From: Candidatus Doudnabacteria bacterium
GTDB lineage: Bacteria; Patescibacteriota; Doudnabacteria; UBA920
Direction of reading: 5' to 3'
DNA length: 64,000 nucleotides
Assembly (NCBI GenBank): GCA_023245895.1
Contig: JAHFJJ010000001.1
Coordinates: 7,621-71,620, forward strand
The notes under the pieces were generated by a model. The model was not told where the DNA came from, did not search any database, and saw nothing but the letters and a program-made list of their open reading frames with translations. Both the position numbers and the translations under genes were made by a program. Shown piece by piece: positions 17,251 to 62,009 of this stretch. Within the stretch, counting starts at the first letter, position 1. Every line of letters starts with the position of its first letter.

Positions 17251-18924
17251 ATGACCAATAGCGCGAGTCCGACAGGCAACGTTATTCTGCTTAACCGTTT
17301 CCAGTTCTGCCACGTTCGCAATAAGAACAACGGCGACATCCTGCTCCACGAGGGTGAGCCGAAACACGGCAAGCGCCTCCAGCTGGAAAGCCATGAAGAA
17401 GTGGTGGGAGTCTGGGAAAAAATCCGGGTGCCCGACCATAAGTACGCCGTAGTCCTCAACCCTTTCAGCGCCGCGACAGGTGACATTATTCCGGGCGACC
17501 GTGAAATCCGCCCCGGGCCGGCGGAATTCTCCCTGCATCCCGGGGAGGCCTTAGAAGGCATTGAAGATGAGATAGTTTTGGCCGACGACGAGGGGCTGCT
17601 GCTTAGGGCGGAAAAAGATTCTCCGCATCCCCTGGCCGGCGAGCAATCTTTTCCCGCCGAAGCCATGCTAAAAGCGGGCCAGGAAATCCTGATTAAAGGA
17701 GAGCGGCGGTACATTCCGCACAAACACATTCGGATAAAAGAAAAAAGGAAGTCCATACCGCTCTCGTCCAAAAACGGGAAGTATGTCCAAAACAGCGACA
17801 CGGGCAAAGTCCGGCTGGTCCGCGGCGAATGCGACTTGTTTTTGGAGCACAACGAATCGCTTTGGAACAAAACCTTGACCCGCGAGGAGGCACAAGCATT
17901 GGGCTACGAAGAACAAACCACGCCAAACCAAAGCCGCGTGCTGGTAGCTGAACCCCGCCAGCGCAAGGACCTATCCGACGCCATTGTGGTTGACCTTGAA
18001 GCCAACGAAGCCATTGCCATTTACAACGGCAATACCGAGCGGGTGGTATTCGGCCCCGATGCCGTTTTCCTGGAACCGCACGAGCGGCCAAAGGTACTGT
18101 TTATTTCCGGAGGCGTGCCGGTCAGGCCCAACGCGCTGAGGATTGCCATCCTCAAAATGGGTCCGGATTTTATTCACGACCAGCTTACAGTAAGAACCAA
18201 AGACAACGCGACGTTGGCCATAGACGTCAACTTCCGCTGGCGCTTCCAAATTGACCGCGAGCATCCGTACAGGCTGTTCGCCCTCAAAGACTTTGTGGGC
18301 TTTGTGGCCCAAACCTTGTCTTCGGAAATCCGCGAGGAAGCTGCCAAACACACCTTTGAGGACTTCCACTCCAAGGCCGCGGAACTGGTAAAGCAAACTT
18401 TGTTCAACGGCCAAAGCAGCCGCCTGTTCACGGAAAACGGCCTGGAAATTTTTGGCATTGACGTGGAAGGCATTGTGCCTGAAGACCCGGAAATCAAAAA
18501 GAAACTGGCCGATGCCATCAAGACCAACGTGGACATTTACACGCAACGCGTAAAGGAGGAGGCTGAACTGGAAAGCGCCCGCCGGCTAATTGACGGCCGG
18601 GAAAAAAACGAGAAAGCAAGGCAAAACTTAATTACCCTGGAAATTGCCAATAGCCGCACGCTGACTATTGAACAGGCAAAAATTAAGGGTGAAGCTGCGG
18701 TTGCCTTTGCCGAATCCGAAGCCCAAGCCGTGGAAATCCGGACCAAAGCCGAACGGGAAGCCGAGATACTGAGGCTAAAAGACCTTACCGGCATTTTGTC
18801 GGGAGACGGCGGCAAGGCCTACATTGAACTGGAACGGGCCAGGGCATTGCGCGAAACCGACAAGGTGGTAGTTCCAACCGATTCCAAGCTGGTTTTAGGG
18901 CTGGAAAAATACCTGAACGAATAA
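17251..18924 (+). CDS. Major vault protein (MVP) homolog, a shortened bacterial version: about three MVP repeats, the shoulder domain and part of the cap helix
   Basis: Collinear similarity to eukaryotic MVP, written as window sequence / human MVP. MVP repeats 7-9: HKYAVVLNPF / HNYCVILDPV; DEGLLLRAEK / QQGLLLRALQ; KNGKYVQNSDTGKVRLVRG / NEGIYVQDVKTGKVRAVIG. Shoulder domain: VVFGPDAVFLEPHERPKVLFISGGVPVRPNALRIAILKMGPDF / [43 protein letters not shown], and DFVGFVAQTLSSEIREEAAKHTFEDFHSKAAELVKQTLF / [39 protein letters not shown]. A coiled-coil cap-helix region follows. The human sequence is quoted from memory. Confidence 0.75.
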   Translation: MTNSASPTGNVILLNRFQFCHVRNKNNGDILLHEGEPKHGKRLQLESHEEVVGVWEKIRVPDHKYAVVLNPFSAATGDIIPGDREIRPGPAEFSLHPGEALEGIEDEIVLADDEGLLLRAEKDSPHPLAGEQSFPAEAMLKAGQEILIKGERRYIPHKHIRIKEKRKSIPLSSKNGKYVQNSDTGKVRLVRGECDLFLEHNESLWNKTLTREEAQALGYEEQTTPNQSRVLVAEPRQRKDLSDAIVVDLEANEAIAIYNGNTERVVFGPDAVFLEPHERPKVLFISGGVPVRPNALRIAILKMGPDFIHDQLTVRTKDNATLAIDVNFRWRFQIDREHPYRLFALKDFVGFVAQTLSSEIREEAAKHTFEDFHSKAAELVKQTLFNGQSSRLFTENGLEIFGIDVEGIVPEDPEIKKKLADAIKTNVDIYTQRVKEEAELESARRLIDGREKNEKARQNLITLEIANSRTLTIEQAKIKGEAAVAFAESEAQAVEIRTKAEREAEILRLKDLTGILSGDGGKAYIELERARALRETDKVVVPTDSKLVLGLEKYLNE

Positions 18925-32531: not shown

Positions 32532-34703
32532 TTAAATCTTTACAAGTTTGTTATAATAGCGTTTCCGCTGTTTAAATTGCCTTTCAAGAAAGGCGATTTT
32601 TTTGTCTTCGTAATCAATAATGGTTTTTTGGTTATTCTTGCCTCGCATGCGGCCAATATATTGGATTAGTTTTCCTTCAAAAGAAAATGGAAAAGCAATT
32701 ATCAAACAGTCAATGCTTGGGATGTCCAGCCCTTCACCAAAAAATTGGCCAGTTGAAAGAATTGCTTGGTAATGGCCGGTTTGGATTTGTTTCAGTTTGA
32801 TTGTTCGTTTGGCGTTGGAATCCTCACCTGATATGGTAATAGTTTCGCATAGGCCTTTGAGATAAAGACTTAAAATTTCCAAGTGATCACGTCGTTCCGA
32901 CAAAAACAAGACTTTTTTGCCTTGGCTGGTTTGTTCCTGAATGTCTTTGACTATCATCTGGTTGCGGTTAGTATCAAAACAAATAAGTTTGGCCAAGAGT
33001 TGAAAGTTGTCAGTGGTGAACTTGAAAGGAACTTCCAGGTTGGTTTCTCGGACAATGATTTGCGTGTTGACTGATTTGTAAGCTGCCGCAGCCGTTTCAG
33101 CTATTATTTCCAGTGCATACTCCATTTGGGCGATGATGTCTCCAATGAACATATAAATTAAGGGCTCATCGTTATGCTTCCGCTTGGGCGTAGCAGTAAG
33201 GCCATAAATGTATTTGGGATTAAGCTGGCTGATAACCTCGCGGAAAGTCTTGGCAGGAATATGGTGACATTCATCTACAATTATCGTACCGAATTTGTTT
33301 TGCAGTTCGGCAAAATTGCCAATTCGTACTAAAGTTTGCATCATGGCTATTGTAATTTCCTCGCCGGTCTTTTTCTTAACAGAATAGTATTGCCCAATGT
33401 CCTTTTTAGGAATTCCCAAAAACGATTGCGTACGTTCAACCCATTGGTCAAGCAATTGCTTGCGATGAACTAAAATTAAGGCCGGCAGTTTTCTTTTGGC
33501 GATAACCTCCAGACCTATTATAGTTTTGCCACTACCGGAAGGTGCGACAATAACGCCGCTATCAGCTTCCAAGGCCTTTGCTACAATCGGCTTCTGCTCA
33601 GGTAAGAGCTTAATGTTGCTCGTAAACTTTACCTCCGGTATTTGCGGTCGTTGGTCTTTAATTTGATAAGCAATTCGGTTATCATGCAAAAAAGAAATTA
33701 GCTGATTTAAAAATCCCCGCGGCAATAAAACATCATCGCCATCTTCCTCAAGCAATTTAAAGAACTTTTGGACTTTGTGAACGGATTTGCCTAACCGTTT
33801 CTTGGTTAAGTATTCCGTGCTAATAAAATTGAGCTTTTCTTTCAAAAAATGGATAAGCTGAGGGGTGAGCTCAGAGCGATTTAAAATAATTTTGCTGTTT
33901 AAAGTTAATCTGACCGATGAAACACCTAACGCTTCCGACACAAAGCTAACGGGCTTGTTAAATACGTTTGAATAAGCTGTTTCAAGTTCCACACCTGTGT
34001 GCTTATATATCGTTTGCAAAAAAGCCCATTGATCGGGATAGGGCTTAAAAGTTTCAGGATCTAAAAATAACGTATTGCTTAGCCGAACAGCTTGGCCTTG
34101 CAGAGGAATGGCAATAAGGTTACCAAACCCCTCTTTGGCTAAACTGTCTTGGTTTGGAAAAAGTCTGTCAAAGCTGACTTCCTTATCAAATTCCGAAAGT
34201 TTTAACACCCGGCGGATTATTTCCAAAATTATTTGTCGGCTCTTATAGCAAGGGTATGGGCTTCCAAAAAATATCCAAACATGCCCGCCGTTGCCTGAAC
34301 GGGATCGTTCAAGATAGGGGTGGAGGCCAACCTTTAGGCATTCGTCAATAAAATTTTTGCAATCCTGTTGCCAAGTACTGCCGTCAAAATCAGCGGCGAT
34401 AAAATACGAAGTATTATCTTGCAGAATTGGGTAAATACCAATAGCACTTGCACCAATTAAATGTTTTCTAACAATATCCGGTGTTAAGGGTATTAATTTT
34501 TTATCTTTAAAGTCCTTGAAGGCCCCACCCTTAAGTTTAAAATTATTGTAAGCTGTCCAATTGACGTCGTAAGCCGGACTATAGTTGCCTTGGCCATTCT
34601 TCTCCCAGTACTTGGCATACACATCTGTTCTGCCGCGAAAGAGCGACTGGTATAAATTCAGCTGTTCTTCAGTAATACTCTGTATCATATATTTAAATTC
34701 CAA
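32532..34703 (-). CDS. PrimPol (archaeo-eukaryotic primase-like) domain fused to an SF2 DExH helicase
   Basis: N-terminal AEP motifs: FIAADFDGSTW (the DxD motif) and SRSGNGGHVWIFF (sGxGxH). C-terminal helicase motifs: VIVAPSGSGKT (Walker A), IIVDECHH (motif II), GLTATP (III), LDIPSIDCLI (V) and QYIGRMRG (VI). 723 aa. Confidence 0.7.
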   Translation of the reverse strand: MEFKYMIQSITEEQLNLYQSLFRGRTDVYAKYWEKNGQGNYSPAYDVNWTAYNNFKLKGGAFKDFKDKKLIPLTPDIVRKHLIGASAIGIYPILQDNTSYFIAADFDGSTWQQDCKNFIDECLKVGLHPYLERSRSGNGGHVWIFFGSPYPCYKSRQIILEIIRRVLKLSEFDKEVSFDRLFPNQDSLAKEGFGNLIAIPLQGQAVRLSNTLFLDPETFKPYPDQWAFLQTIYKHTGVELETAYSNVFNKPVSFVSEALGVSSVRLTLNSKIILNRSELTPQLIHFLKEKLNFISTEYLTKKRLGKSVHKVQKFFKLLEEDGDDVLLPRGFLNQLISFLHDNRIAYQIKDQRPQIPEVKFTSNIKLLPEQKPIVAKALEADSGVIVAPSGSGKTIIGLEVIAKRKLPALILVHRKQLLDQWVERTQSFLGIPKKDIGQYYSVKKKTGEEITIAMMQTLVRIGNFAELQNKFGTIIVDECHHIPAKTFREVISQLNPKYIYGLTATPKRKHNDEPLIYMFIGDIIAQMEYALEIIAETAAAAYKSVNTQIIVRETNLEVPFKFTTDNFQLLAKLICFDTNRNQMIVKDIQEQTSQGKKVLFLSERRDHLEILSLYLKGLCETITISGEDSNAKRTIKLKQIQTGHYQAILSTGQFFGEGLDIPSIDCLIIAFPFSFEGKLIQYIGRMRGKNNQKTIIDYEDKKIAFLERQFKQRKRYYNKLVKI

Positions 34704-40167: not shown

Positions 40168-42480
40168 TTAAATTTTTACCGGTTCCTGCGCGGGTTCTTT
40201 TTTCGGCAACAGCTTTTTTGCTTCCAGCCAGCCGGCGACTGCTTCAGGCGCCATAGGCGGGGAAATATAATAGCCCTGCGCCGCGTCGCATCCCAGGCCT
40301 GCCAAAAAATTAAATTGCTGGTCAGTCTCCACGCCTTCGGCAATGACTTTTAAATTCAAGGTGCGGGCCATAGAAACAATGGTGCGCACAATACCCGCGT
40401 CCTGTTCATTTACAATGCACTGCCTGACGAAAGAACGGTCAATTTTAAGGTTATGGATAGGAAAGCGCTTTAAATAACTTAAGGAGGAATAGCCCGTCCC
40501 AAAATCATCTATGCTAATCCTAACGCCCATTTTCTTAAGCTGTTTCAAATTATGGCTTGTGGTTTCCAGGTTGCTCATTGCAACGCTCTCGGTAATCTCT
40601 ACTTCCAGGTTGCCCGCATCCATGGCGGATTCTTGCAAAATACGCGCCAGCTGCTCAAGGAATTCGCTGTCGGCAAAGCTTTGGGCTGAAAGATTAACAG
40701 CCATCCGGAACTGCGGAAAACCCATAGCCTCCCAGTCTATATATTGCCGGCAGGTCGCTTTTAAGGCATATTCGCTAAAGCGTAAAATTAAACCGGTTTC
40801 TTCGGCCAGGGGAATAAATTCCGCCGGCGAAAGTAATCCTTTAACCGGATGCTGCCAGCGGGCCAGGGCTTCCATAGCCATGAGTTTTCCGGTTTTCAAA
40901 TTTACAATCGGCTGGTAATAAAGCGACACTTGATTTTCGGCCAGAGCGCGGCGGAGGTCATTTTCCAAAGCCAGTTTTTCAGAGGCGTGGGTGTCCGAGG
41001 ATGGGTTATAGAGGCTGTAACAGTTGCGGCCTTTTTCCTTGGCGCGGTAGAGGGCCATATCCGCGTGCTTTTTTAGTTCATGAGTATCGTGGCCGTCGTA
41101 AGGGTAAATAGCAATACCAATGCTGACCGAAGGGTGGAATGTATGCGCGCCCAGCTGTACCGGTATGCTACTGGCTTTTAGGATTTTTTCCGCGACCTTT
41201 ACCGCCTCGCCTCCGGAATGTATTTCGTTCAATAAAATTAAAAACTCATCCCCCCCAAAACGCGCAATAGTGTCCTCCGCCCTCAGACAGGACTTAAAAC
41301 GCGTGGCCGCTAATTTTAGCACGGTATCGCCCACCGAATGGCCCAGTGTGTCATTAATGCTTTTAAAGCGGTCCATGTCCAAAAACATTATTGCCATTTT
41401 CCTGTTATGCCGCTTAGCCGCTTCTATGGCTTGTTCAACCCTAATACCGAATTGCTTGCGGTTGGGCAGGCCGGTTAGGGAATCATGGTAGGCCTGGTGT
41501 AAAATGGTCTGTTCTGAAAATTTGCGTTCGGTAATGTCGCGCAGGTTGGCCACAATACTGCCTACGCCGGGATGGTCCATCATGTTAACCAATGTCGCTT
41601 CCAGCCAGCGCACGGAACCGTCGCTATGCCAAAAACGGAACTCAAGCGTTTTGGAGCTTTGGGGGACCTGCAAAATTTCAGTGCTATGGGAACGTAAAAG
41701 CGGCAGGTCTTCTTCTAAAACCAACTCGGTAATTTTTTTGTTAATTAAATCGGCCGATTTGTATCCGGACACCTTTGCGGCCGAAGGAGTCATGTCTAAA
41801 ATTTGCCCCTCGGGAGAAATAAGGGCAATAATGTCATAGCTGTTTTCAACCAGGGCCTGGAAACGGGATTTTTGGTTTTCGGCTTCCAGCCTGGCGGCCT
41901 GTTCGCTGGCCAACAAACGGTATATGGTAATGGCCTGGGCGGCACTATGACCAATTAAAACACAAAGGTCTTTTTCATCATCCGTGAATTCGTGTACGTT
42001 GTTGTAGCAAATGTTGAAAGTGCCGTAATTAGTATTTTTATATGCAATGGGAATTGCCACAAAACCTTTAATGTAGGGCTTGAGCTCAGATACCAGCTTG
42101 TCCCATTGTGTATAATCCGACATATAAATAGGCATTTTGTCGTCAAATGCCTTTTGTGTAATGCCGTCTGTCCTGGGCGGGGTCGGTTCAAAAGGAGTAC
42201 GCGGGTCTTTATAGAGCAGCCTAAATTCTTTTTCAGTACTGTCTTTAAAAAAAGAAAAGCCGTAATTGGCGTTTAAAATATCAACTGTAACGTCAGTAAA
42301 ATTTTGTACGATTTGCCTCTCGTTGGCCGCGCCGACAGATTTAAGGACAGCCTGGTTTAACCTATTAAAATTTTTCTTAATGTTTTCTTGCATAAAGTTA
42401 AAGGAAAGGGGCTTGCTGGAGGAATGGGAAATTCCCCCAGCAAGTGTAGCGTAGGCTATTGGAACACCAACAAACGGCAC
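40168..42480 (-). CDS. GAF/PAS sensor protein with GGDEF and EAL domains (c-di-GMP turnover)
   Basis: RFGGDEF with an upstream LDMDRFKSIND GGDEF core. EAL motifs EALARWQHP and the DDFGTGYSSL region. Central PAS segment. 770 aa. Confidence 0.85.
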   Translation of the reverse strand: MPFVGVPIAYATLAGGISHSSSKPLSFNFMQENIKKNFNRLNQAVLKSVGAANERQIVQNFTDVTVDILNANYGFSFFKDSTEKEFRLLYKDPRTPFEPTPPRTDGITQKAFDDKMPIYMSDYTQWDKLVSELKPYIKGFVAIPIAYKNTNYGTFNICYNNVHEFTDDEKDLCVLIGHSAAQAITIYRLLASEQAARLEAENQKSRFQALVENSYDIIALISPEGQILDMTPSAAKVSGYKSADLINKKITELVLEEDLPLLRSHSTEILQVPQSSKTLEFRFWHSDGSVRWLEATLVNMMDHPGVGSIVANLRDITERKFSEQTILHQAYHDSLTGLPNRKQFGIRVEQAIEAAKRHNRKMAIMFLDMDRFKSINDTLGHSVGDTVLKLAATRFKSCLRAEDTIARFGGDEFLILLNEIHSGGEAVKVAEKILKASSIPVQLGAHTFHPSVSIGIAIYPYDGHDTHELKKHADMALYRAKEKGRNCYSLYNPSSDTHASEKLALENDLRRALAENQVSLYYQPIVNLKTGKLMAMEALARWQHPVKGLLSPAEFIPLAEETGLILRFSEYALKATCRQYIDWEAMGFPQFRMAVNLSAQSFADSEFLEQLARILQESAMDAGNLEVEITESVAMSNLETTSHNLKQLKKMGVRISIDDFGTGYSSLSYLKRFPIHNLKIDRSFVRQCIVNEQDAGIVRTIVSMARTLNLKVIAEGVETDQQFNFLAGLGCDAAQGYYISPPMAPEAVAGWLEAKKLLPKKEPAQEPVKI

Positions 42481-45930: not shown

Positions 45931-47250
45931 TCAATTTTGTTTAGGATAGAACTTCCTAAACTTTCCGTAAATTGCCCGAATCGCGTTTTGCCACTGGCTT
46001 TCATCAACCCCAACTATTACGTTAGCCTGCCGAAAGTCCTGGCTAATCATACGAACCTTAATTCCCTCGTTAGCCAAAGCTTCTGCAATGTCAGCTAGGC
46101 TACGAGTATAGTTGGCCATACCGAATCCCACAATAGTAACTAAAGCAATCCCATTAGAAACTTCCACGGGATTTCCGGGGGTTATGGCCTGCAGCCGCTC
46201 AAGCACTCTATCTGTTTTATCACAAAGTTTATCCTTATGAACGACTACAGATAAAGTATCAGTCCCGGTCGGAAAATGCTCTACTGAAACTCCGAGGTCG
46301 CGGAAAACGCAAAATACGCTGGCGGCAAAACCCGTTTGGTCATGAAGACCCGGCATAGCCAAATTAAAACGTACGAACCCTGCCTTGCCCGCTATGCCCG
46401 CAACAACTTCTGGTCCAGGCTCTCTCTCAAACCGGATTATGCTGCCAAGGTCATTGGGTTTGTTGGTGTCGGCTATGCGTATTTGGACGCCTCTTACCCT
46501 TGCCGGCTCAATCGCGTCTGCGTGCAAAACACTAGCCCCTAAATAAGCAAGCTCCCGTATTTCACGGAAAGTAATGCTCCGAATTATAGCGGCATCTGGT
46601 ACAATCCTGGGGTCGGCTACCCTCAACGGTGTATCGGACCAATTCTCATACAAATCTGCGGCAAGAGCTCCGGCCACAATTGCGCCGGTAATGTCCGATC
46701 CGTTCCTTGGAAAGGCCTTTACTGCTTCTCCCTGTCTACCATAGAAGCCGGGAACAATATATCCATTGGACCCATTGCAACGCTCCGCAATTTTTTCGTA
46801 AGTTACAGGGTGGACTTGGCCGTGGTGGCCAAAAAAGATGAGCTGGTCTGCGTCGACAAACTCGAAATCCATGTATTGTGCCATAAGCAGCCCGCAAAGG
46901 TACTCGCCCCGGCTGACCACGAAGTCGTAAGTTGCCTTCTTTGACCGGATTTGCTTTTCAATCGTGGCAAAATACGCCGGAAGATCAAGCCTCAACTTCA
47001 GGTCCGCAGCAATTTCCACAAAACGCTCCGTAACAGCCTTCCATGGTCCTGACCAGTCTTGACTGACCCTTCTTGAGTCCCAAACTTTAACAAGGAAATC
47101 CGTTACCTTGTCCGGATGCGCCTCATCTTTGCCCGGGGCTGACACCACTATAAACCGACGACTTGGATCATCCCGGACAATTGCGGCAATTTTCCTAAAC
47201 TGTACTGCGTTGGCAGTCGACGACCCTCCAAACTTGCATACTTTCTTCAT
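45931..47250 (-). CDS. lysC: Aspartate kinase
   Basis: N-terminal KFGGSS, an amino-acid kinase fold, C-terminal ACT-like regions. 439 aa. Adjacent to lysA. Confidence 0.8.
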   Translation of the reverse strand: MKKVCKFGGSSTANAVQFRKIAAIVRDDPSRRFIVVSAPGKDEAHPDKVTDFLVKVWDSRRVSQDWSGPWKAVTERFVEIAADLKLRLDLPAYFATIEKQIRSKKATYDFVVSRGEYLCGLLMAQYMDFEFVDADQLIFFGHHGQVHPVTYEKIAERCNGSNGYIVPGFYGRQGEAVKAFPRNGSDITGAIVAGALAADLYENWSDTPLRVADPRIVPDAAIIRSITFREIRELAYLGASVLHADAIEPARVRGVQIRIADTNKPNDLGSIIRFEREPGPEVVAGIAGKAGFVRFNLAMPGLHDQTGFAASVFCVFRDLGVSVEHFPTGTDTLSVVVHKDKLCDKTDRVLERLQAITPGNPVEVSNGIALVTIVGFGMANYTRSLADIAEALANEGIKVRMISQDFRQANVIVGVDESQWQNAIRAIYGKFRKFYPKQN

Positions 47251-47589: not shown

Positions 47590-47808
47590 TTATTTAGCCT
47601 TAATTAATACCAAACTACAAACAAAACAAAAAATAGCAACAAGGATTCCAAAGAACAAGAGCAATATATTAAACCTGTCAAAAATGGCGGGTAAGACTAT
47701 GGAAGCTATGCACACTAGGCCTAAATCTGCAGTAATATCGGACAATTTTTGCAGTTGTTCAGAAGACAAACGTATGTCTTTGTATTTATTATACCTTATT
47801 CGGAACAT
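47590..47808 (-). CDS. Small membrane protein, 72 aa with 2 TM helices
   Basis: Hydrophobic ORF. Confidence 0.3.
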   Translation of the reverse strand: MFRIRYNKYKDIRLSSEQLQKLSDITADLGLVCIASIVLPAIFDRFNILLLFFGILVAIFCFVCSLVLIKAK

Positions 47809-47823
47809 ATGTCAAATGTAACT

Positions 47824-49338
47824 CTAAATTGAATTTAAGTCAACCGTCTCATCAATCCGAATTTGCGAAACAAAATCAGGAATATGGGAGACCATTAACA
47901 TTGCGCCTTGGTATTCGTCCAATGCTTTGGCGATGATGGGAAGATGGCGGAAGTTTATGTGGTTGGTGGGTTCATCTAATATCAGCAACCCCGGTTTCAT
48001 TAAGACTAACCTGCAAAAAGATAGTAACCCTTTTTGCCCTTCGGACAAAGCGGCAATCGGATGGTCTAAAAGTTTGCCGTCGATTAAAAAGCCCGCAGCG
48101 GTGGCGCGTAAATGGTGCTCGTCAAACTTTTCCATAACTTCTTTTAGCGCGTCAAAGGCTTTTTGTTCAAAGTCAAAATTGCTGAAGTCCTGTTTGTAGT
48201 AGCCTATTTTTATGCCTTTGGCGATTGCGAAACCATCAGAAGTTAAGGGATTCCTCGGCTCGGATGCACTCGCCTCGGAATGACGGGGAAAGGTGGAAGC
48301 GATTTTTTCAAGTAAAGTTGATTTGCCAATGCCATTAGGTCCGCTGATGATGATATGGGTATTTTTGCGGACGACCAACTCCAGCTCTTTTGTTATCGGC
48401 TGATGATTTTTGAGCGCCGATATTGAATTGAATTCCATTATCTTTCCGTCAAAAAATTTATCAAACTCCTGGCAAGGCATAACAAATTCGCGGATGGTTC
48501 TGTCTTCCTGCCTAACTTCCACAATATTTTCCTCGGCTTCTTCCGCCGCCTCGCGCATGCGTTTGGCAACCGCGCGAAGCTTGCCGCCTTTGTGGGCAAA
48601 AACTTCCGCCTGGCTTCGCTTTTCTTTAATTTCCATTTGCATACGCGCGTTCTGCAAATTTTCTCTCTCTATTCGATTTTTAATTTCTTCAACTACATCG
48701 TAATAGTTGCCGGAATACTGTTCAACCTTATGAGTAAAGACATCTAAATACAAAACGCCGTCAGAAAAAGCGTTTAAAAAATCCGCGTCGTGGGAAATTA
48801 CAATTACGGTTTTTTCATACATCATTAAAAAACCGGTTAAATGCTCTATGCCCTGCTGGTCTAAATTGTTGGTGGGCTCGTCCAGCAAAAGAATGTCGGG
48901 ATTTTGGATTAAAGCGTGCGCCAAAAGCAACCTAGCCTGCTGTCCGCCCGATAAAGCTTTTACCTGCCTGTCCAAAGGCAAATCCACATTTACAACCTCA
49001 AAAACATCTTTAATCAGCTTGTCCAAATTATATTTCTTTTCCGTAAACGCCGTGGCAAAATAATCCCTGACGGTTAATTCCAAAACATCCAAAGGCATAA
49101 CCTGGCGCGCAATGGCAATACTGGCATCCCTTGGCGTGCGGTGAACATCTCCCGATGTCGGCTTAAGCTCGCCGGTTATCATTTTAAAAAGGGAAGATTT
49201 CCCCGCGCCGTTCTGTCCCATTAAAGTTATCCGGCTTCCGGTGCGCACGGAAAAACTCGCCTCATCTAAAATGTGCTTATTATGGCCGTATTCAAAACTG
49301 ACATCGGAAAATCTAAGTATGACGCTGTCGTTTGGCAT
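47824..49338 (-). CDS. ABC-F family ATPase (two ABC domains, no TM region), carrying a partial family-B palindromic element in frame
   Basis: Two Walker A motifs (GQNGAGKSSL; GPNGIGKSTL), two ABC signature motifs (LSGGQQ; LSEGQK) and D-loops. 504 aa. Residues FPRHSEASASEPRNPLTSD are encoded by 48252-48287, which matches the family-B core tcggatgcactcg. Confidence 0.85.
   Translation of the reverse strand: MPNDSVILRFSDVSFEYGHNKHILDEASFSVRTGSRITLMGQNGAGKSSLFKMITGELKPTSGDVHRTPRDASIAIARQVMPLDVLELTVRDYFATAFTEKKYNLDKLIKDVFEVVNVDLPLDRQVKALSGGQQARLLLAHALIQNPDILLLDEPTNNLDQQGIEHLTGFLMMYEKTVIVISHDADFLNAFSDGVLYLDVFTHKVEQYSGNYYDVVEEIKNRIERENLQNARMQMEIKEKRSQAEVFAHKGGKLRAVAKRMREAAEEAEENIVEVRQEDRTIREFVMPCQEFDKFFDGKIMEFNSISALKNHQPITKELELVVRKNTHIIISGPNGIGKSTLLEKIASTFPRHSEASASEPRNPLTSDGFAIAKGIKIGYYKQDFSNFDFEQKAFDALKEVMEKFDEHHLRATAAGFLIDGKLLDHPIAALSEGQKGLLSFCRLVLMKPGLLILDEPTNHINFRHLPIIAKALDEYQGAMLMVSHIPDFVSQIRIDETVDLNSI
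48252..48287. repeat. Partial family-B palindromic element inside the ABC-F ORF
   Basis: cctcggctcggatgcactcgcctcggaatgacg compared with the family-B right half cttcggatgcactcgcgatgaca. Confidence 0.55.
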
Positions 49339-54454: not shown

Positions 54455-56215
54455 CTAAAGATGATTCTCAAATACTGCTCTCTCTTTTAACAAATTAGCA
54501 AAGGTTAGATTTAATTCATCAACTCTTAGTTTATTGCCGGCGGTTTCCGCGGCCTTAATGTCGGACTGCAAAGCCTGCTGTTGGCGTTTTAAGGAATTAA
54601 CTTTGAGCAATGCGAAAGATTTTTCTAAAATTCTCCTTAATCTGTCAGTCTCTCCGCCCAGTTCGTCCAGTTGTGATTCTACCATAAAAAGCACTTCTTT
54701 GGCTAGTGTTGTCTGTCGCGCTGATGCGGCTTGTTCTCCCCCTGCAATTAGCTGGCTTACTGCCTTACCAACCTCAGGATCCTCAAAATCTTGCGCCTGG
54801 ATTTTGCCCAAAATTGCAGCCAAAAAATCCGGCAAAAACAGCAACCCCCCCAAAACTTCCTTTTGCAAAAGCAGCCCCGGCGCAACTTTTTGGGCCTGTG
54901 ATATACTATCCCCTATACCCTGTACCCTCAACCCTCCCTTTATCTGGTCCCGAATAACCTTTTCCGAAATTAAAAACCTGGTGGCAATATTATGCACGTA
55001 ATGGTCCTGCTCTAACGGGTCGCTCACAAAGCCTAAAAACGGTACCACCTCTTTACTCAAATATAATTTTTGCTCTACCGAACCCTGTTTAAAATTGTTT
55101 TCGGCTAAATCTATGTAGTAATCCAAAAACCAAATAGCTTCGCTGATGGCTTTTTCCCAAAGCCCCGGAGATTTTTTTATTAGTTCGTCGGGGTCCTTAA
55201 CATTTTTAAGGATGATGAGTTTTAAACGGAAGCCATTCTTCAAAGCCAGCTCCCCGGCGCGTCGGCTGGCAGTCTGACCCGCGGCGTCACTGTCAAAACA
55301 AAACTTTAAATTTTTTGTCAGGCGCCCTAGTTGCTGGAGCTGTTGTTCTGTCAAAGCCGTGCCGCTGGATGCCACGGTGTTTGCAAAGCCAGCCTGGTGA
55401 GCCGCAATGCAATCCATTTGTCCCTCGACAATGACCGCTTCATCTTTTTTGCGAATAGCGTCTTTGGCAAAATTCAGCCCGAACAAAATTTTGCTTTTGT
55501 TGTAAATGGCGGTTTCAGGGCTATTAACATATTTCGCGGACTTACCATCATCGCGCAAAATTCTGGCAGAGAAACCAACGGTCTCACCAAAATAATTATA
55601 AATGGGAAAAGTTACGCGCCCACGGAATCGGTCGTACATTTGTCCGCGTTCATTTTTGGCCGACACTCCGGCTTTTACCAGCTCGTTGATGTTAACTTTT
55701 TTAGTTGCCAAAGCTTTTTCCAAAGCGTGAAAATCATCAGCCGCAAAACCAATTTCCCAGTTTTTTATTGTCGCCTCGCTAAGTCCGCGCGTTTTTAAAT
55801 ACTCCAAAGCTTCCGCGCCGCCTTTGCTTAATAAGACCTGATGATAGTAACGCGCGGCAAAAGCGTTTATCCTTAACAATAATTCTTTTTCATCCTGCTG
55901 ATACTGGTCAACCGGCTTATAGGTTGGCAACTTCACCCCCGCTTTGTCAGCCAAAATTTTCAGCGCGTCCCTAAATTCCAAATTCTCATATTTTCTCACA
56001 AAACCAAAAACATCCCCGCCCTCGCCGCAGCCAAAGCAATGCCAAATCTGCTTTTGCGGGCTTATGATTAAAGACGGTGACTTCTCATTATGAAAAGGGC
56101 AAGGCGCCTTAAAATTGACGCCGGCCTTCTTAAGTTGAATATAACCGCCGATGATATCCGCAATATTCAGCCTATCCTTAATCTCTTGTAATACCGGATC
56201 GTTCATAGGTTTCAA
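54455..56215 (-). CDS. dnaG: DNA primase
   Basis: Zinc-binding CPFHNEKSPSLIISPQKQIWHCFGCGEGGDVFGFV. A TOPRIM region (EGQMD...D.D..G). 586 aa. Immediately upstream of rpoD. Confidence 0.9.
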   Translation of the reverse strand: MKPMNDPVLQEIKDRLNIADIIGGYIQLKKAGVNFKAPCPFHNEKSPSLIISPQKQIWHCFGCGEGGDVFGFVRKYENLEFRDALKILADKAGVKLPTYKPVDQYQQDEKELLLRINAFAARYYHQVLLSKGGAEALEYLKTRGLSEATIKNWEIGFAADDFHALEKALATKKVNINELVKAGVSAKNERGQMYDRFRGRVTFPIYNYFGETVGFSARILRDDGKSAKYVNSPETAIYNKSKILFGLNFAKDAIRKKDEAVIVEGQMDCIAAHQAGFANTVASSGTALTEQQLQQLGRLTKNLKFCFDSDAAGQTASRRAGELALKNGFRLKLIILKNVKDPDELIKKSPGLWEKAISEAIWFLDYYIDLAENNFKQGSVEQKLYLSKEVVPFLGFVSDPLEQDHYVHNIATRFLISEKVIRDQIKGGLRVQGIGDSISQAQKVAPGLLLQKEVLGGLLFLPDFLAAILGKIQAQDFEDPEVGKAVSQLIAGGEQAASARQTTLAKEVLFMVESQLDELGGETDRLRRILEKSFALLKVNSLKRQQQALQSDIKAAETAGNKLRVDELNLTFANLLKERAVFENHL

Positions 56216-56250
56216 CCCCCTCTCTTTTCAAAAGAGAGGGGCGGGGTGAG
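56216..56250. repeat. Hairpin element cccctctcttttcaaaagagaggggcggggtgag directly upstream of dnaG
   Basis: Same family as the in-frame element at 14251-14283. Confidence 0.55.
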
Positions 56251-56304: not shown

Positions 56305-56334
56305 TTGACAGTATAGTCAATTTTATGCTATAAT
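56305..56334 (+). promoter_or_regulatory. Sigma-70-like promoter: TTGACA, 18 nt, TATAAT
   Basis: Consensus hexamers 160 nt upstream of ATG 56497. The leader contains two small hairpins. Confidence 0.5.
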
Positions 56335-56496
56335 ATAAGGTTAAATTAAATAATTGATTATTGTGAAAATTAGCCCATTTTTACGGCAATTTCCCGTTTA
56401 ATCAATTCTTTATAGGAATTGAACGTTCTTTGTCCGACCACTTAATCGTGGCCGGAAATTCAAACCTGCCCAAATGGGCAAACAAAAGAGGGAAAA

Positions 56497-57330
56497 ATGA
56501 AAGAAGAAAATAATATTGGAAACGCGTCCGACCAAACCGACTCCCCTGCATCTTCAGAGTCTACTCAAGAAGTCAGACTCGTGGAAGAAACTTCGGGATT
56601 AATTGCGTCACCAACACCGGTTGACAGCGAGACCCAAAAACCGCAAGAAAAAACGGGCAAAGATATCGTGCTCGTGTCTCAAGATCGCACAATCTTCAAA
56701 TCCGTCTACGCCTTGGAGGTCACCGGCCGAAGAGTGCAGTCGGTCTCCGGAATCCTTCACTGGAAGCCGGAGACTCTTATCAGAAGAATTAAAACGGCCC
56801 TTCCGGCAGTGGTTGAACAGCAGCTCTACCTTCATGTAGGCGGAGATTTCCGGATTCAACCGGAATCTTTGGCGAAGTTGCTGAGGAGTTTTCTGGGAAG
56901 CTATGAACTGCAACCCGACGATTTCTTCAGTGTTTCTGTCGGTAACAACCTCGTCAAAAACAAGTTTGCCGACGTTGCCGACTTTCTGGAAGGCGCGCTG
57001 ACCTTGCTCGACAAAGTTTCAATCGACTACGCTGGTTTTACCATGAGCATGGAAGACGCGGCGGAATTGGTAAAGACTTACGGCCCAGAGGGCGCAGAGT
57101 CAATAATCGATTCAATCGCGGCCAACATCGACCATATTGCCCCACGGCTGAATGCTGAAAACCGTTCTTTCGAACGCGCAATGGGCATTGCCATCGGGTT
57201 CCTGGTAGACGTAATCATTCCGGACAACCGTTCTTCACCGGCGGTTCTGGATATGCTTGAATACTTTCAAGACACTGACGGCCTCCTACGCGCGCAAATG
57301 CGCAGGGCCACCGGAAAGGACGAAGAATGA
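56497..57330 (+). CDS. Hypothetical protein, 277 aa; higher GC
   Basis: Acidic, Ser/Thr-rich N-terminus. It overlaps the downstream J-domain gene by 4 nt. Confidence 0.4.
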   Translation: MKEENNIGNASDQTDSPASSESTQEVRLVEETSGLIASPTPVDSETQKPQEKTGKDIVLVSQDRTIFKSVYALEVTGRRVQSVSGILHWKPETLIRRIKTALPAVVEQQLYLHVGGDFRIQPESLAKLLRSFLGSYELQPDDFFSVSVGNNLVKNKFADVADFLEGALTLLDKVSIDYAGFTMSMEDAAELVKTYGPEGAESIIDSIAANIDHIAPRLNAENRSFERAMGIAIGFLVDVIIPDNRSSPAVLDMLEYFQDTDGLLRAQMRRATGKDEE

Positions 57331-58457
57331 GCGACTTCACACGCGAGCTTCGAAGACAGTTCGAAGCCAAGCCCGTATGGGGCGACATAAATCCGCTGGT
57401 TGTTATGGGGCTGACCGAAGCTATTCTGGATTTGGAAGTTTCTGAAGACCAGTTGCACAAGATAGTCCGCAGTTTCGCCCGCCAACTTTCTGCCCAAGTT
57501 CACCCCGACAAAGCCCCTAACCAAGAAGTTACGGAGCGGCAAAAAAGCATTATTGCCGCCTTTGACTTCATTGACGATGAGGAAACTTTCCGGGTCGCTT
57601 TGAAAGACTTTAGGAATCTCAAAGCTGAGGATAGGAAAGAAAACCAAGCTCTTCGCCAAACTATCGCTGCCCTTCGCCGCCAACTTACTAGTCATGCAGA
57701 AGAGATGAATAGATTTGCGGACATTAGAAGGCAAATTACTGAAGAACGCTCCGCCTTCGAAAGAACAAAACTTGAAGATCCGGCCATGGTCCCAATTCTG
57801 GAGGAAAAAATTGAAAGATTCAACCAGGTGATCAGCGCACAAGAGCGGCGTATTGGGCATTCTGAAGAGATTCAAAAGCAATGGAGACGCAGGCATGCCG
57901 ATTCGCTCCGTTACATTATTAACCTAGGAGAAAGAGAGGAAAACCAACCTGGGGCAATTTTTGTGTACGACACGAAGTGGGCGGCCATTGCATCGCTCCC
58001 CGATATCGATTCGCCTTGGGTAGGAAAGCGACAAGAAATGGAGGATGTAGCACAAGCTGCAAAATCGATAGGAATCGCAGACAAGGAGATTACGCAGATA
58101 AAGGAAGCTTGGCAAAGGTATTACAATGATAACCAATTAGCAAGAAAGAGTCAGAACCATCGGCTAAGCCTCATCCAACTAAACACTGGAAAGCCCTCGC
58201 TGGTTATTGGTCAAAAGACCGCCGTATGGGGTGGCAACTTAATTGGCTCATTGGATCCTAAAGCCCTTCCTACGATGGGAAGAGGTTGGCTGGAATTCTC
58301 GCTGCAATATGAGAAGGTGATAAACACACTCACACCTTATCTCGCACCGGGCAATCTGCTGGTTTCCGTCTTTAAGAAAAGAGGTGATTCTCACCTGGAC
58401 ATTACTTGCCCAGCATTCAAGTTCACTACAAAGAAAATCATCATCGCTGTAGGTTAA
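57327..58457 (+). CDS. J-domain (DnaJ-like HPD motif) protein with a long coiled-coil and C-terminal domain of unknown function
   Basis: LHKIVRSFARQLSAQVHPDKAP reads as J-domain helix II followed by the HPD loop. No Gly/Phe region and no zinc-finger region, so it is not a DnaJ/CbpA orthologue. Confidence 0.5.
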   Translation: MSDFTRELRRQFEAKPVWGDINPLVVMGLTEAILDLEVSEDQLHKIVRSFARQLSAQVHPDKAPNQEVTERQKSIIAAFDFIDDEETFRVALKDFRNLKAEDRKENQALRQTIAALRRQLTSHAEEMNRFADIRRQITEERSAFERTKLEDPAMVPILEEKIERFNQVISAQERRIGHSEEIQKQWRRRHADSLRYIINLGEREENQPGAIFVYDTKWAAIASLPDIDSPWVGKRQEMEDVAQAAKSIGIADKEITQIKEAWQRYYNDNQLARKSQNHRLSLIQLNTGKPSLVIGQKTAVWGGNLIGSLDPKALPTMGRGWLEFSLQYEKVINTLTPYLAPGNLLVSVFKKRGDSHLDITCPAFKFTTKKIIIAVG

Positions 58458-58738
58458 CGACGTTTCCAGGCTGCGCGAAGCCAAAACAACAATCCGAGAC
58501 AAAGTATCGCGCTACTTTGTCTCTTTTCCAAAGCTTGTGATTCCGATCATGAATTTTGGAAAACAACTATCGACAAAACCAAATAAAAATGATATTCTAT
58601 GCAAAGCCACTTTAAAAGGACTCCCGAAAATCCACCTGAGAATTTTATTAAGGGATTTTTGGGAAAGAGGAGCAACTGCGGAGGGCGAGAGGCGATTCGC
58701 TTTAGCGAATCCCGAAAGCCCGAAGCAAGTTGCGACGA

Positions 58739-58828
58739 GGAAGCGTCGCATAGTGGTCTAGTGCACGCGCTTGGAAAGCGCGCAACCTGTCAAAGGGTTC
58801 GGGAGTTCGAATCTCCCCGCTTCCGCCA
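58739..58828 (+). tRNA. tRNA-Ser (anticodon GGA), CCA encoded
   Basis: Acceptor ggaagcg/cgcttcc, D-arm gcat-agtggtcta-gtgc, anticodon stem cgcgc/gcgcg with loop ttGGAaa, a long variable arm aacc-tgtcaaag-ggtt, T-arm gggag-ttcgaat-ctccc, discriminator G then CCA. 90 nt. Confidence 0.75.
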
Positions 58829-58835
58829 CAAAAAA

Positions 58836-58866
58836 CCAATCACAGATGTGATTGGTTTTTTGTGTC
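58836..58866 (+). terminator. Rho-independent terminator after tRNA-Ser
   Basis: aaccaatcacagatgtgattggtt followed by ttttgtgt. Confidence 0.7.
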
Positions 58867-58895
58867 CCGAGCGAAGTCGAGGGGCAAAAAATATG

Positions 58896-61418: not shown

Positions 61419-61452
61419 GCCTCAATAATTCACGGCCGTGAATTATTGAGGC
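61419..61452. promoter_or_regulatory. Perfect 34-nt palindrome gcctcaataattcacggccgtgaattattgaggc covering the stop of the PaaX-like gene
   Basis: Exact self-complementarity. It shares the core ttcacggccgtgaa with the second palindrome at 62003-62036. Confidence 0.6.
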
Positions 61453-62009
61453 TTTCTGATTTTGTTCAAATCAAATCTTTTTCTTAGCTCCTCATCATTA
61501 TCCATTTCATCGACTTTAATAATCCTTATATAATTCATTAGACCGCTTTGCTGCAGATAGCCTATAGCCTCTCTGTTTAAAGGATAAGGGTTAATAAAAA
61601 CGCTGGCTTGAAGCTTTACAAAATTATTTCTTTTTAAAAGGCCTCGTAATTGATCTCGTTTATCTCTAGCCTCTTCTGGTACATCAAAAATTACAATCCT
61701 CCATTTTCCATCCCAATGATTGCTTTTACTGATACTTGCCTTTACAAAAAGTTTTTCCAATTCACCTTTGCTAGTTAAGGCAAGAAAATTGTTACTTCCT
61801 TTTTTAGCTACCTTTACCAATCCTTTACTTTTCATTCGGCGTATAGATTCATAACAACTTTTCTTGCTTGCCCCTTTAAGTTGATTTCGACGCCAGCTAT
61901 CCGTGTGCTCTAAAGGCCATTGGAAAAAGCCCGTCGATTCACCTATAGCTGTTAATAATATACTGCTTAATGACCCGTATTTATTGCTCATAAATTTATT
62001 ATACCTCAT
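61443..62009 (-). CDS. PaaX-family-like transcriptional regulator
   Basis: WDGKWRIVIFDVPEEARDKRDQLRGLLKRNNFVKLQASVF matches the PaaX C-terminal-domain pattern. The N-terminal part is winged-helix-like. Its start and stop codons lie inside the two flanking perfect palindromes. Confidence 0.5.
   Translation of the reverse strand: MRYNKFMSNKYGSLSSILLTAIGESTGFFQWPLEHTDSWRRNQLKGASKKSCYESIRRMKSKGLVKVAKKGSNNFLALTSKGELEKLFVKASISKSNHWDGKWRIVIFDVPEEARDKRDQLRGLLKRNNFVKLQASVFINPYPLNREAIGYLQQSGLMNYIRIIKVDEMDNDEELRKRFDLNKIRKPQ

Follow-up and report, generated by a model that had tools for sequence, protein, structure and literature searches.

Bacterial class C (or type III) J-domain proteins (JDPs), such as DjlA, HscB, DjlB and DjlC of Escherichia coli, have only a J-domain with its HPD motif in common with DnaJ, the remainder of each protein being a family-specific targeting region that is expected to guide Hsp70 to one client or location (PMC8215388). 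In this work, we analyse a two-gene module, here called A–B, in a 64-kb stretch of a Candidatus Doudnabacteria contig (JAHFJJ010000001.1; 'the window' hereafter means this whole stretch), whose second gene is predicted to encode a class C JDP, protein B, and whose first gene encodes its constant companion, protein A. Protein B likewise has the J-domain alone in common with DnaJ, but it differs from DjlA, HscB, DjlB and DjlC in that its J-domain is divergent and scores below the family threshold, is preceded by a conserved 28-residue N-terminal extension and leads into a coiled coil and then an α/β domain without a match, and in that its gene always lies just downstream of one partner gene.

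The CbpA–CbpM pair is likewise a two-gene operon of a J-protein and a small dedicated partner that binds it, but there the gene order is reversed (A lies upstream of B), CbpA is a class B protein with glycine/phenylalanine-rich (G/F) and C-terminal domains, and A is twice the size of CbpM. A relationship between A and CbpM (MerR_2-like) was considered and rejected, as hhalign with an E. coli CbpM sequence entered by hand gave a probability of 0.1%. Rki, the product of gene 057w of the T4-like phage RB43, is a virus-borne, class-C-like J-protein that acts via host DnaK (PMC3486835); phage-like contigs hold short B variants, which makes for a likeness. Rki, however, is an ORFan that stands by itself, without an obligate partner, most A–B pairs are chromosomal and no sequence relation between Rki and A–B was found in phage collections. 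Finally, a J-domain recruits Hsp70 to remodel a replication complex in the lambda O–P–DnaB system and with plasmid initiators that employ DnaJ, DnaK and GrpE, and SV40 brings its own J-domain, in large T antigen (PMC3486835). A–B resembles these systems in context only, through replication genes as frequent neighbours, and A could not be related to lambda P, to loaders of the DnaC type or to initiators. A–B is a previously unannotated, rare and widely scattered module, and a variant on the class C J-protein theme.

Protein B carries a predicted class C J-domain

Several independent lines of evidence agree in assigning the N-terminus of B to a divergent J-domain. A preliminary description of the locus had recognized a J-domain helix II and HPD loop in ARQLSAQVHPDKAP (residues 51–64), and database searches point the same way: Pfam DnaJ (PF00226) matches residues 36–86 of B (E = 2e-4, 21.8 bits), and 15 of 19 B relatives match it each by itself (best E = 2.3e-5), with no second family recurring. 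When the profile of the N-terminal 104 residues was searched against PDB sequences (E ≤ 0.1), all 32 matches were J-domains, DNAJB1, DnaJ, CbpA and DNAJC5 among them (best E = 5.7e-4). Comparison of the N-terminal profile by hhalign with eight canonical J-domain sequences, entered by hand, gave a probability of 95.6% and E = 1.3e-8, with both HPD motifs in register and LDLGL paired with ILGV of helix I. In the AlphaFold2 (AF2) model, H59-P60-D61 (nucleotides 57501–57509) lies in a loop (58–65) between helix II (40–57) and helix III (66–82), the helical hairpin on which the preliminary description had staked its reading; helix I corresponds to TEAILDL and helix IV continues into the coiled coil. 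In Foldseek searches with B, J-domains were the sole local matches of low root-mean-square deviation (56–64 columns at 3.3–4.7 Å, the best being 63 columns at 3.3 Å), all of them non-significant (E > 1).

Conservation is concentrated in the same region. The HPD motif is invariant in the 19-sequence B alignment, and all 26 of 26 B-like proteins have it, even those encoded beside A relatives as far away as E = 5.7e-4. The N-terminal extension, with F4, W18, N22-P23-L24 and G28 invariant in the core family, and the J region (mean pairwise identity 0.62) stand out from the rest of B in conservation by a wide margin, the coiled coil reaching 0.27 and the C-terminal domain 0.34, and the basic residues R48 and R52 of helix II align with R22 and K26 of DnaJ. 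As mutation of the HPD histidine abolishes J-domain function elsewhere (PMC3486835), the invariance of the motif and the conservation around it argue for a working J-domain that would act with Hsp70.

The G/F and zinc-finger regions of DnaJ were said to be missing from B, and indeed neither DnaJ_C (PF01556) nor the CXXCXGXG zinc finger (PF00684) matches B, even at E ≤ 10, or its 19 relatives; only one cysteine is present in B, and the NCBIfam DnaJ equivalogs score 17 bits on it against cut-offs above 330. Lacking a G/F region, a zinc finger and a DnaJ C-terminal domain, B is predicted to be a class C JDP by the usual definition (PMC8215388). The coiled coil and the C-terminal domain of the preliminary description were likewise borne out. 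Long helices are predicted at 85–147 and 152–199, matched only by coiled-coil structures, and the α/β domain that follows has no structural relative in PDB, where Foldseek returned no match to B with E < 1. This last domain is missing from short B variants (223–298 amino acids), which keep the N-terminal extension, the J-domain and the coiled coil.

A and B form a translationally coupled pair

A lies directly 5′ of B in every fetched locus that keeps upstream sequence, very distant pairs included, a strongly positive outcome of the co-occurrence check that had been proposed for the pair. For the distant relatives of A that we checked (P0143, E = 2.7e-12; P0105; P0120, E = 2e-19; P0157, E = 5.7e-4), the following protein always has the ENPL...G(L/F) extension, and the three partners that are complete carry an HPD J-domain, then a coiled coil and, in most cases, the C-terminal domain; at locus L030 the sequence holds only the first 52 residues of the partner, which stop short of the HPD. 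The stop codon of A overlaps or abuts the start codon of B in 15 of 17 junctions, and the Shine–Dalgarno (SD) sequence of B falls within the last codons of A. Such coupling is typical for subunits of one complex, and we infer that A and B form one. No conserved third gene accompanies A–B in the fetched loci.

Many A proteins end in a conserved tail, ..LLKREGII, that is encoded by the very bases forming a GGAGG-like SD for B. Since tail and SD share these bases, part of the tail's conservation may be an RNA-level constraint. The A protein of the window has no such tail, and AAGGA serves as the SD of its B gene instead.

The genomes in which matches were found are metagenome-assembled genomes, three of them labelled Candidatus Saccharibacteria. 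The closest A to that of the window (55%) comes from a genome that has resistance–nodulation–division (RND) efflux genes and in which toxin–antitoxin genes surround the pair.

A self-contained operon between dnaG and tRNA-Ser

In the window, A–B is a real two-gene operon, self-contained in that it has its own promoter, an overlapping stop and start and its own terminator (Table 1). The open reading frames (ORFs) of 277 and 376 amino acids that had been read as a translationally coupled pair are real and overlap in ATGA, which holds the TGA of A and the ATG of B, and a well-matching SD, AGAGGGA, lies 5′ of A. An opposite-strand ORF (57267–57896, 209 amino acids) was discarded as a true gene because conservation tracks the plus-strand frames. 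The pair sits where the preliminary description placed it, with dnaG (minus strand, 54455–56215) and rpoD (minus strand) upstream and tRNA-Ser(GGA) (58739–58828) and, on the minus strand, the phosphoenolpyruvate (PEP) synthase gene ppsA downstream.

The textbook TTGACA-18-TATAAT promoter reported for the pair is matched at every position, 162 nucleotides 5′ of the ATG of A, and thus leaves a long leader. With two perfect TTGACA/TATAAT sites in the window compared to 0.05 expected from shuffled sequences, the A–B promoter is unlikely to have arisen by chance. Its −35 box lies inside a TTGAC-N6-GTCAA palindrome (56305–56320), which also yields a weaker divergent promoter-like site facing dnaG. 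The leader folds more stably than shuffled controls (minimum free energy −40 kcal/mol, z = −2.86), and an Rfam scan of leader and flanks gave no family match except tRNA-Ser. Beyond B, a hairpin followed by TTTT is likely, from its sequence, to be the terminator of the unit.

Further signals lie close by or are of the same kind. The second perfect promoter site of the window, TTGACA-16-TATAAT (47788–47815, minus strand), sits between an ABC-ATPase gene (47824–49338, minus strand), just 3′ of it, and an aspartate-kinase-like gene (45931–47250, minus strand). Immediately 5′ of dnaG there is a perfect 12-bp inverted repeat, CCCCTCTCTTTT/AAAAGAGAGGGG (56217–56241), whose 3′ arm in the dnaG messenger RNA holds a purine-rich, SD-like GAGAGGGGG; with this SD-like sequence inside the arm, the repeat could hold back translation of dnaG. 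As to where dnaG starts, the listed TTG (56215) is probably wrong and the ATG at 56206 the true one, as a public annotation of the identical contig (L001) has a protein of 583 amino acids and leaves the TTG unused. Between the 3′ ends of tRNA-Ser and the convergent PEP synthase gene lies a 27-nucleotide inverted repeat, 85% complementary (58818–58873), that is probably a bidirectional terminator.

One early claim did not hold, namely that the pair is compositionally distinct and of higher GC content. The 45 ORFs of the window used for comparison have a mean GC of 0.452 (s.d. 0.044), from which A, at 0.507 (z = 1.26), and B, at 0.472 (z = 0.46), depart little; the z-values for third codon positions are 0.98 and −0.04, respectively, and so the idea of a compositional island was dropped. 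The true GC-shifted island of the window is a different stretch, at about 16.4–23.4 kb (gene GC 0.50–0.55, z up to 2.2), around a 557-residue protein (17251–18924, plus strand) with Major Vault Protein shoulder and repeat domains and an SPFH/Band 7 domain.

Table 1 Features of the A–B locus and gene contexts of A–B pairs (AB, the pair; positions refer to the window unless a fetched locus, L, is named)
Feature	Position	Strand	Remarks
Sigma-70 consensus promoter	56305..56334	+	TTGACA-18-(TG)TATAAT; 12/12 match, TG extension
Leader	56335..56496	+	162 nt; SD region GAGGGAA predicted to pair with upstream UUCCC
Gene A	56497..57330	+	277 aa
A, most conserved segment (residues 73–135)	56713..56901	+	basic, HTH-like pattern
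A, acidic helical part (residues 136–250)	56902..57246	+	median pI 4.9 across family
Gene B	57327..58457	+	376 aa; predicted class C J-domain protein
B, N-terminal extension (residues 1–28)	57327..57410	+	precedes J-domain; mean pairwise identity 0.56
B, predicted J-domain (residues 29–95)	57411..57611	+	from profile, alignment and model
B, coiled-coil hairpin (residues 96–200)	57612..57926	+	opens with invariant AEDRxE; otherwise poorly conserved
B, C-terminal alpha/beta domain (residues 201–376)	57927..58454	+	ends ..PGxLLVS...CPAFKFTTKRIILAVG
Hairpin GAGACAAAGTATCG/CGCTACTTTGTCTC, then TTTT	58496..58527	+	38 nt past B stop
A tail/B SD overlap	L008:2190-2223, L014:1275-1305, L002:7970-8001		also at other A/B junctions
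Window context			dnaG / tRNA-Ser / ppsA
Other chromosomal context			ppsA-AB-enolase
Other chromosomal context			recR-dnaB / AB / cysS
Other chromosomal context			AB-dnaX-tag (clamp-loader dnaX-type gene)
Other chromosomal context			ftsW / AB
Other chromosomal context			HTH gene-AB ... recG
Other chromosomal context			cupin-AB / ndk
Other chromosomal context			AB / PemK toxin
Phage-like contig, short B			adjoins DUF1376 "primosomal protein" and HNH endonuclease
Phage-like contig, short B			between integrase/YqaJ and HNH/resolvase-like gene
Phage-like contig, short B	L031:1-5331	opposite	between terminase large subunit and portal genes

Protein A is helical and without annotated relatives

Protein A was described as acidic, which its isoelectric point (pI) of 4.7 bears out. 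Residues 1–62 form a disordered acidic extension that is lineage-specific and occurs in the window copy only, and the core (about 70–250) is modelled by AF2 as all-helical with one small β hairpin, at a predicted local distance difference test (pLDDT) score of about 90. The core falls into two parts of opposite charge. The most conserved segment has a helix-turn-helix (HTH)-like pattern, VQxxAxRLxWKPETxIxRI..ALP..EQQxYL...PES.AKLL, and across the family its median pI is 9.8, with 83% of members above 8; the acidic part that follows holds modelled helices at 156–177, 185–209 and 225–246.

A profile search of 1.84 billion cluster representatives returned 129 relatives of A (117 at E < 1e-10), which span 60–331 amino acids, with most full-length members at about 200–280, and each of which matched in one single stretch. 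Nothing in Pfam, NCBIfam, PHROG or PADLOC matches A, and family profiles built from 16 and 124 sequences found nothing meaningful among PDB sequences. A Pfam scan of 124 family members gave no consistent family: DAO_C appeared weakly in eight, and the HTH matches were single, weak and non-significant (E ≥ 0.008, one member each), one of them mapping onto the basic segment. Family consensus sequences matched HTH_30 only (E = 0.058). With no significant HTH match, the basic segment can only be taken as a candidate for binding DNA.

A putative Hsp70-targeting module

The safest statement is that B would be a class C J-protein working together with A. Beyond this, we give somewhat better than even chances to the reading that A–B is an Hsp70-targeting module, in which DnaK is brought to bear on A or on an assembly bound to A, with nucleoprotein complexes of replication or recombination as the likeliest class of target. 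The HPD J-domain of B would, most likely, dock on host DnaK and trigger ATP hydrolysis; its coiled coil would probably dimerize or scaffold B and hold A; and A would be either the client itself or a specificity subunit bringing DnaK to a defined assembly. The recruited DnaK could then act on A or on the assembly that A recognizes. Class C JDPs offer a precedent, having only the J-domain in common and serving as targeting factors (PMC8215388), and from the sequence of B we infer that it, too, recruits DnaK.

As to the target, a replication gene (dnaG, dnaB/recR or dnaX) is the immediate neighbour in 3 of roughly 10 independent chromosomal contexts, for which a rough, post-hoc estimate gives a chance probability of p ~0.004, and two phage copies lie in replication or recombination regions; on these grounds, we would look for the target first among the nucleoprotein complexes of DNA replication or recombination, a link that the contexts hint at. 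Replication of lambda, P1 and P2 requires DnaK, DnaJ and GrpE, and the J-domain of SV40 T antigen serves viral replication (PMC3486835).

A number of points weigh against this reading. On the side of B, the Pfam score falls short of the DnaJ gathering score of 27.8 bits at which Pfam itself admits members; the model confidence of the J region is low (pLDDT 54–70); the structural matches to J-domains lack significance; and the hhalign comparison, with its hand-entered reference sequences, is supportive and not rigorous. A motif search for Hsp70 and GrpE in the window and the fetched loci found neither, and the cognate Hsp70 is thus assumed. On the side of A, the protein is acidic overall and has no similarity to known helicase loader, initiator or DNA-binding families, nor does it belong, by sequence or fold, with lambda P, DnaC/DnaI, DnaA or the DUF1376-type primosomal proteins. 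The link to replication was read post hoc from 3 of about 10 chromosomal contexts, and other contexts are unrelated, such as ppsA/enolase, ftsW, cupin/ndk, toxin–antitoxin islands and terminase–portal.

A bolder form of the Hsp70-targeting reading, which we rate as improbable, makes A–B a chaperone-recruitment device for DNA replication, with A a new replisome or origin-binding factor and B its private J-protein. In phages and lineages without DnaC- or P-type loaders, A might then act, say, as a helicase loader or operator or as an accessory to an initiator, and B would summon host DnaK to release or activate it. If true, this would be a bacterial or phage counterpart of the SV40 large T J-domain, with the lambda P/DnaJ/DnaK step hard-wired in an operon.

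Alternative explanations

The rival that survives best, though we consider it unlikely, is that A–B is a phage-derived accessory (moron-like) cassette that hijacks or titrates host DnaK in the manner of Rki, with no part in replication, and whose purpose is to redirect the host's proteostasis or heat-shock response, or else to act in phage–host conflict. One pair sits on the opposite strand between terminase large subunit and portal, a moron-like position that is unusual for a replication-related module, and two more lie in phage-like early regions; some chromosomal copies occur in toxin–antitoxin-rich islands or beside PemK; neighbours vary among lineages; and the window copy, with its consensus promoter and terminator, stands beside a tRNA gene. 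There is also the precedent of Rki, a phage JDP acting via DnaK on sigma-32 (PMC3486835). The terminase–portal insertion, the toxin–antitoxin neighbours and the pair's own promoter suit a mobile, DnaK-manipulating cassette equally well. However, phage and defence collections offer it little: neither A nor B matched any of 50,697 GenBank phages (tblastn), three scans of IMG/VR with A and B alignments found no relative, the best PHROGs hits are non-significant and fall in families of unknown function (E = 0.32 for A, 0.0088 for B), and in PADLOC-DB A has no match and B only coiled-coil noise in its helical region (MkoC, LmuB and JetC, E = 2e-4 to 0.12). Moreover, most copies lie between housekeeping genes without an integrase, synteny is partly kept within sublineages (ppsA adjoins the pair in the window and in L004, and dnaB–AB–cysS recurs in L003 and L017), and the composition of the window pair, as described above, is unremarkable.

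We regard it as distinctly improbable that A is an autoregulatory HTH transcription factor, binding for instance the TTGAC-N6-GTCAA palindrome, with B coupling A to the availability of DnaK, whether as a chaperone-titration feedback (HspR/DnaK-like) or as a co-chaperone and modulator pair (CbpA–CbpM-like). Operons of a JDP with a small HTH-type partner do exist, CbpA–CbpM being an example (PMC8215388), and the basic, HTH-like segment of A, its scattered weak HTH-family matches and the palindrome over the −35 box would fit. None of these matches reaches significance, however, A shows no kinship with CbpM, and the palindrome, which divergent −35 boxes explain too, is known from the window copy alone, upstream regions of the other loci being different.

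Finally, that the J-like region is a structural relic without Hsp70 contact, and A–B a coiled-coil scaffold of unrelated function, seems very unlikely indeed: the sub-threshold Pfam score, the low model confidence and the departures from DnaJ (Q53 at the position of R27, RQ for KFK in helix III and no QKRxxYD motif) would suit it, but across very deep divergence the HPD never varies, no part of B is better conserved than the J region, and R48 and R52 keep their counterparts in DnaJ.

Other features of the window

Elsewhere, the window encodes a 723-residue protein (32532–34703, minus strand) in which the archaeo-eukaryotic primase domain of TOTE conflict systems is fused to a ResIII/DEAD helicase, in a low-GC stretch (0.39–0.40), and a 770-residue GAF-PAS-GGDEF-EAL protein (40168–42480, minus strand). 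As signalling by cyclic di-GMP would be out of the ordinary in a reduced Saccharibacteria genome, the organism of the window may come from a different lineage than most of the metagenome-assembled genomes that carry homologues. A gene for a PaaX-middle-domain (Cas2-like) protein (61443–62009, minus strand) has the lowest GC of the window (0.346, z = −2.4; 0.30 at third codon positions).

Significance

Class C J-proteins decide where Hsp70 acts and, to our knowledge, few bacterial ones have known clients. The A–B family overturns no current concept, but it brings a built-in candidate client or adaptor: A is always co-encoded with B and nearly always translationally coupled to it, so that what B would hand over to DnaK can be tested directly. 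Neither A nor the C-terminal domain of B has an annotated or structural relative, and both are candidates for new family definitions. With pairs in Saccharibacteria metagenome-assembled genomes, other uncultured bacteria and phage-like contigs, and with replication genes recurring as neighbours, the module may point to chaperone-assisted replication or phage–host interaction in these little-studied lineages.

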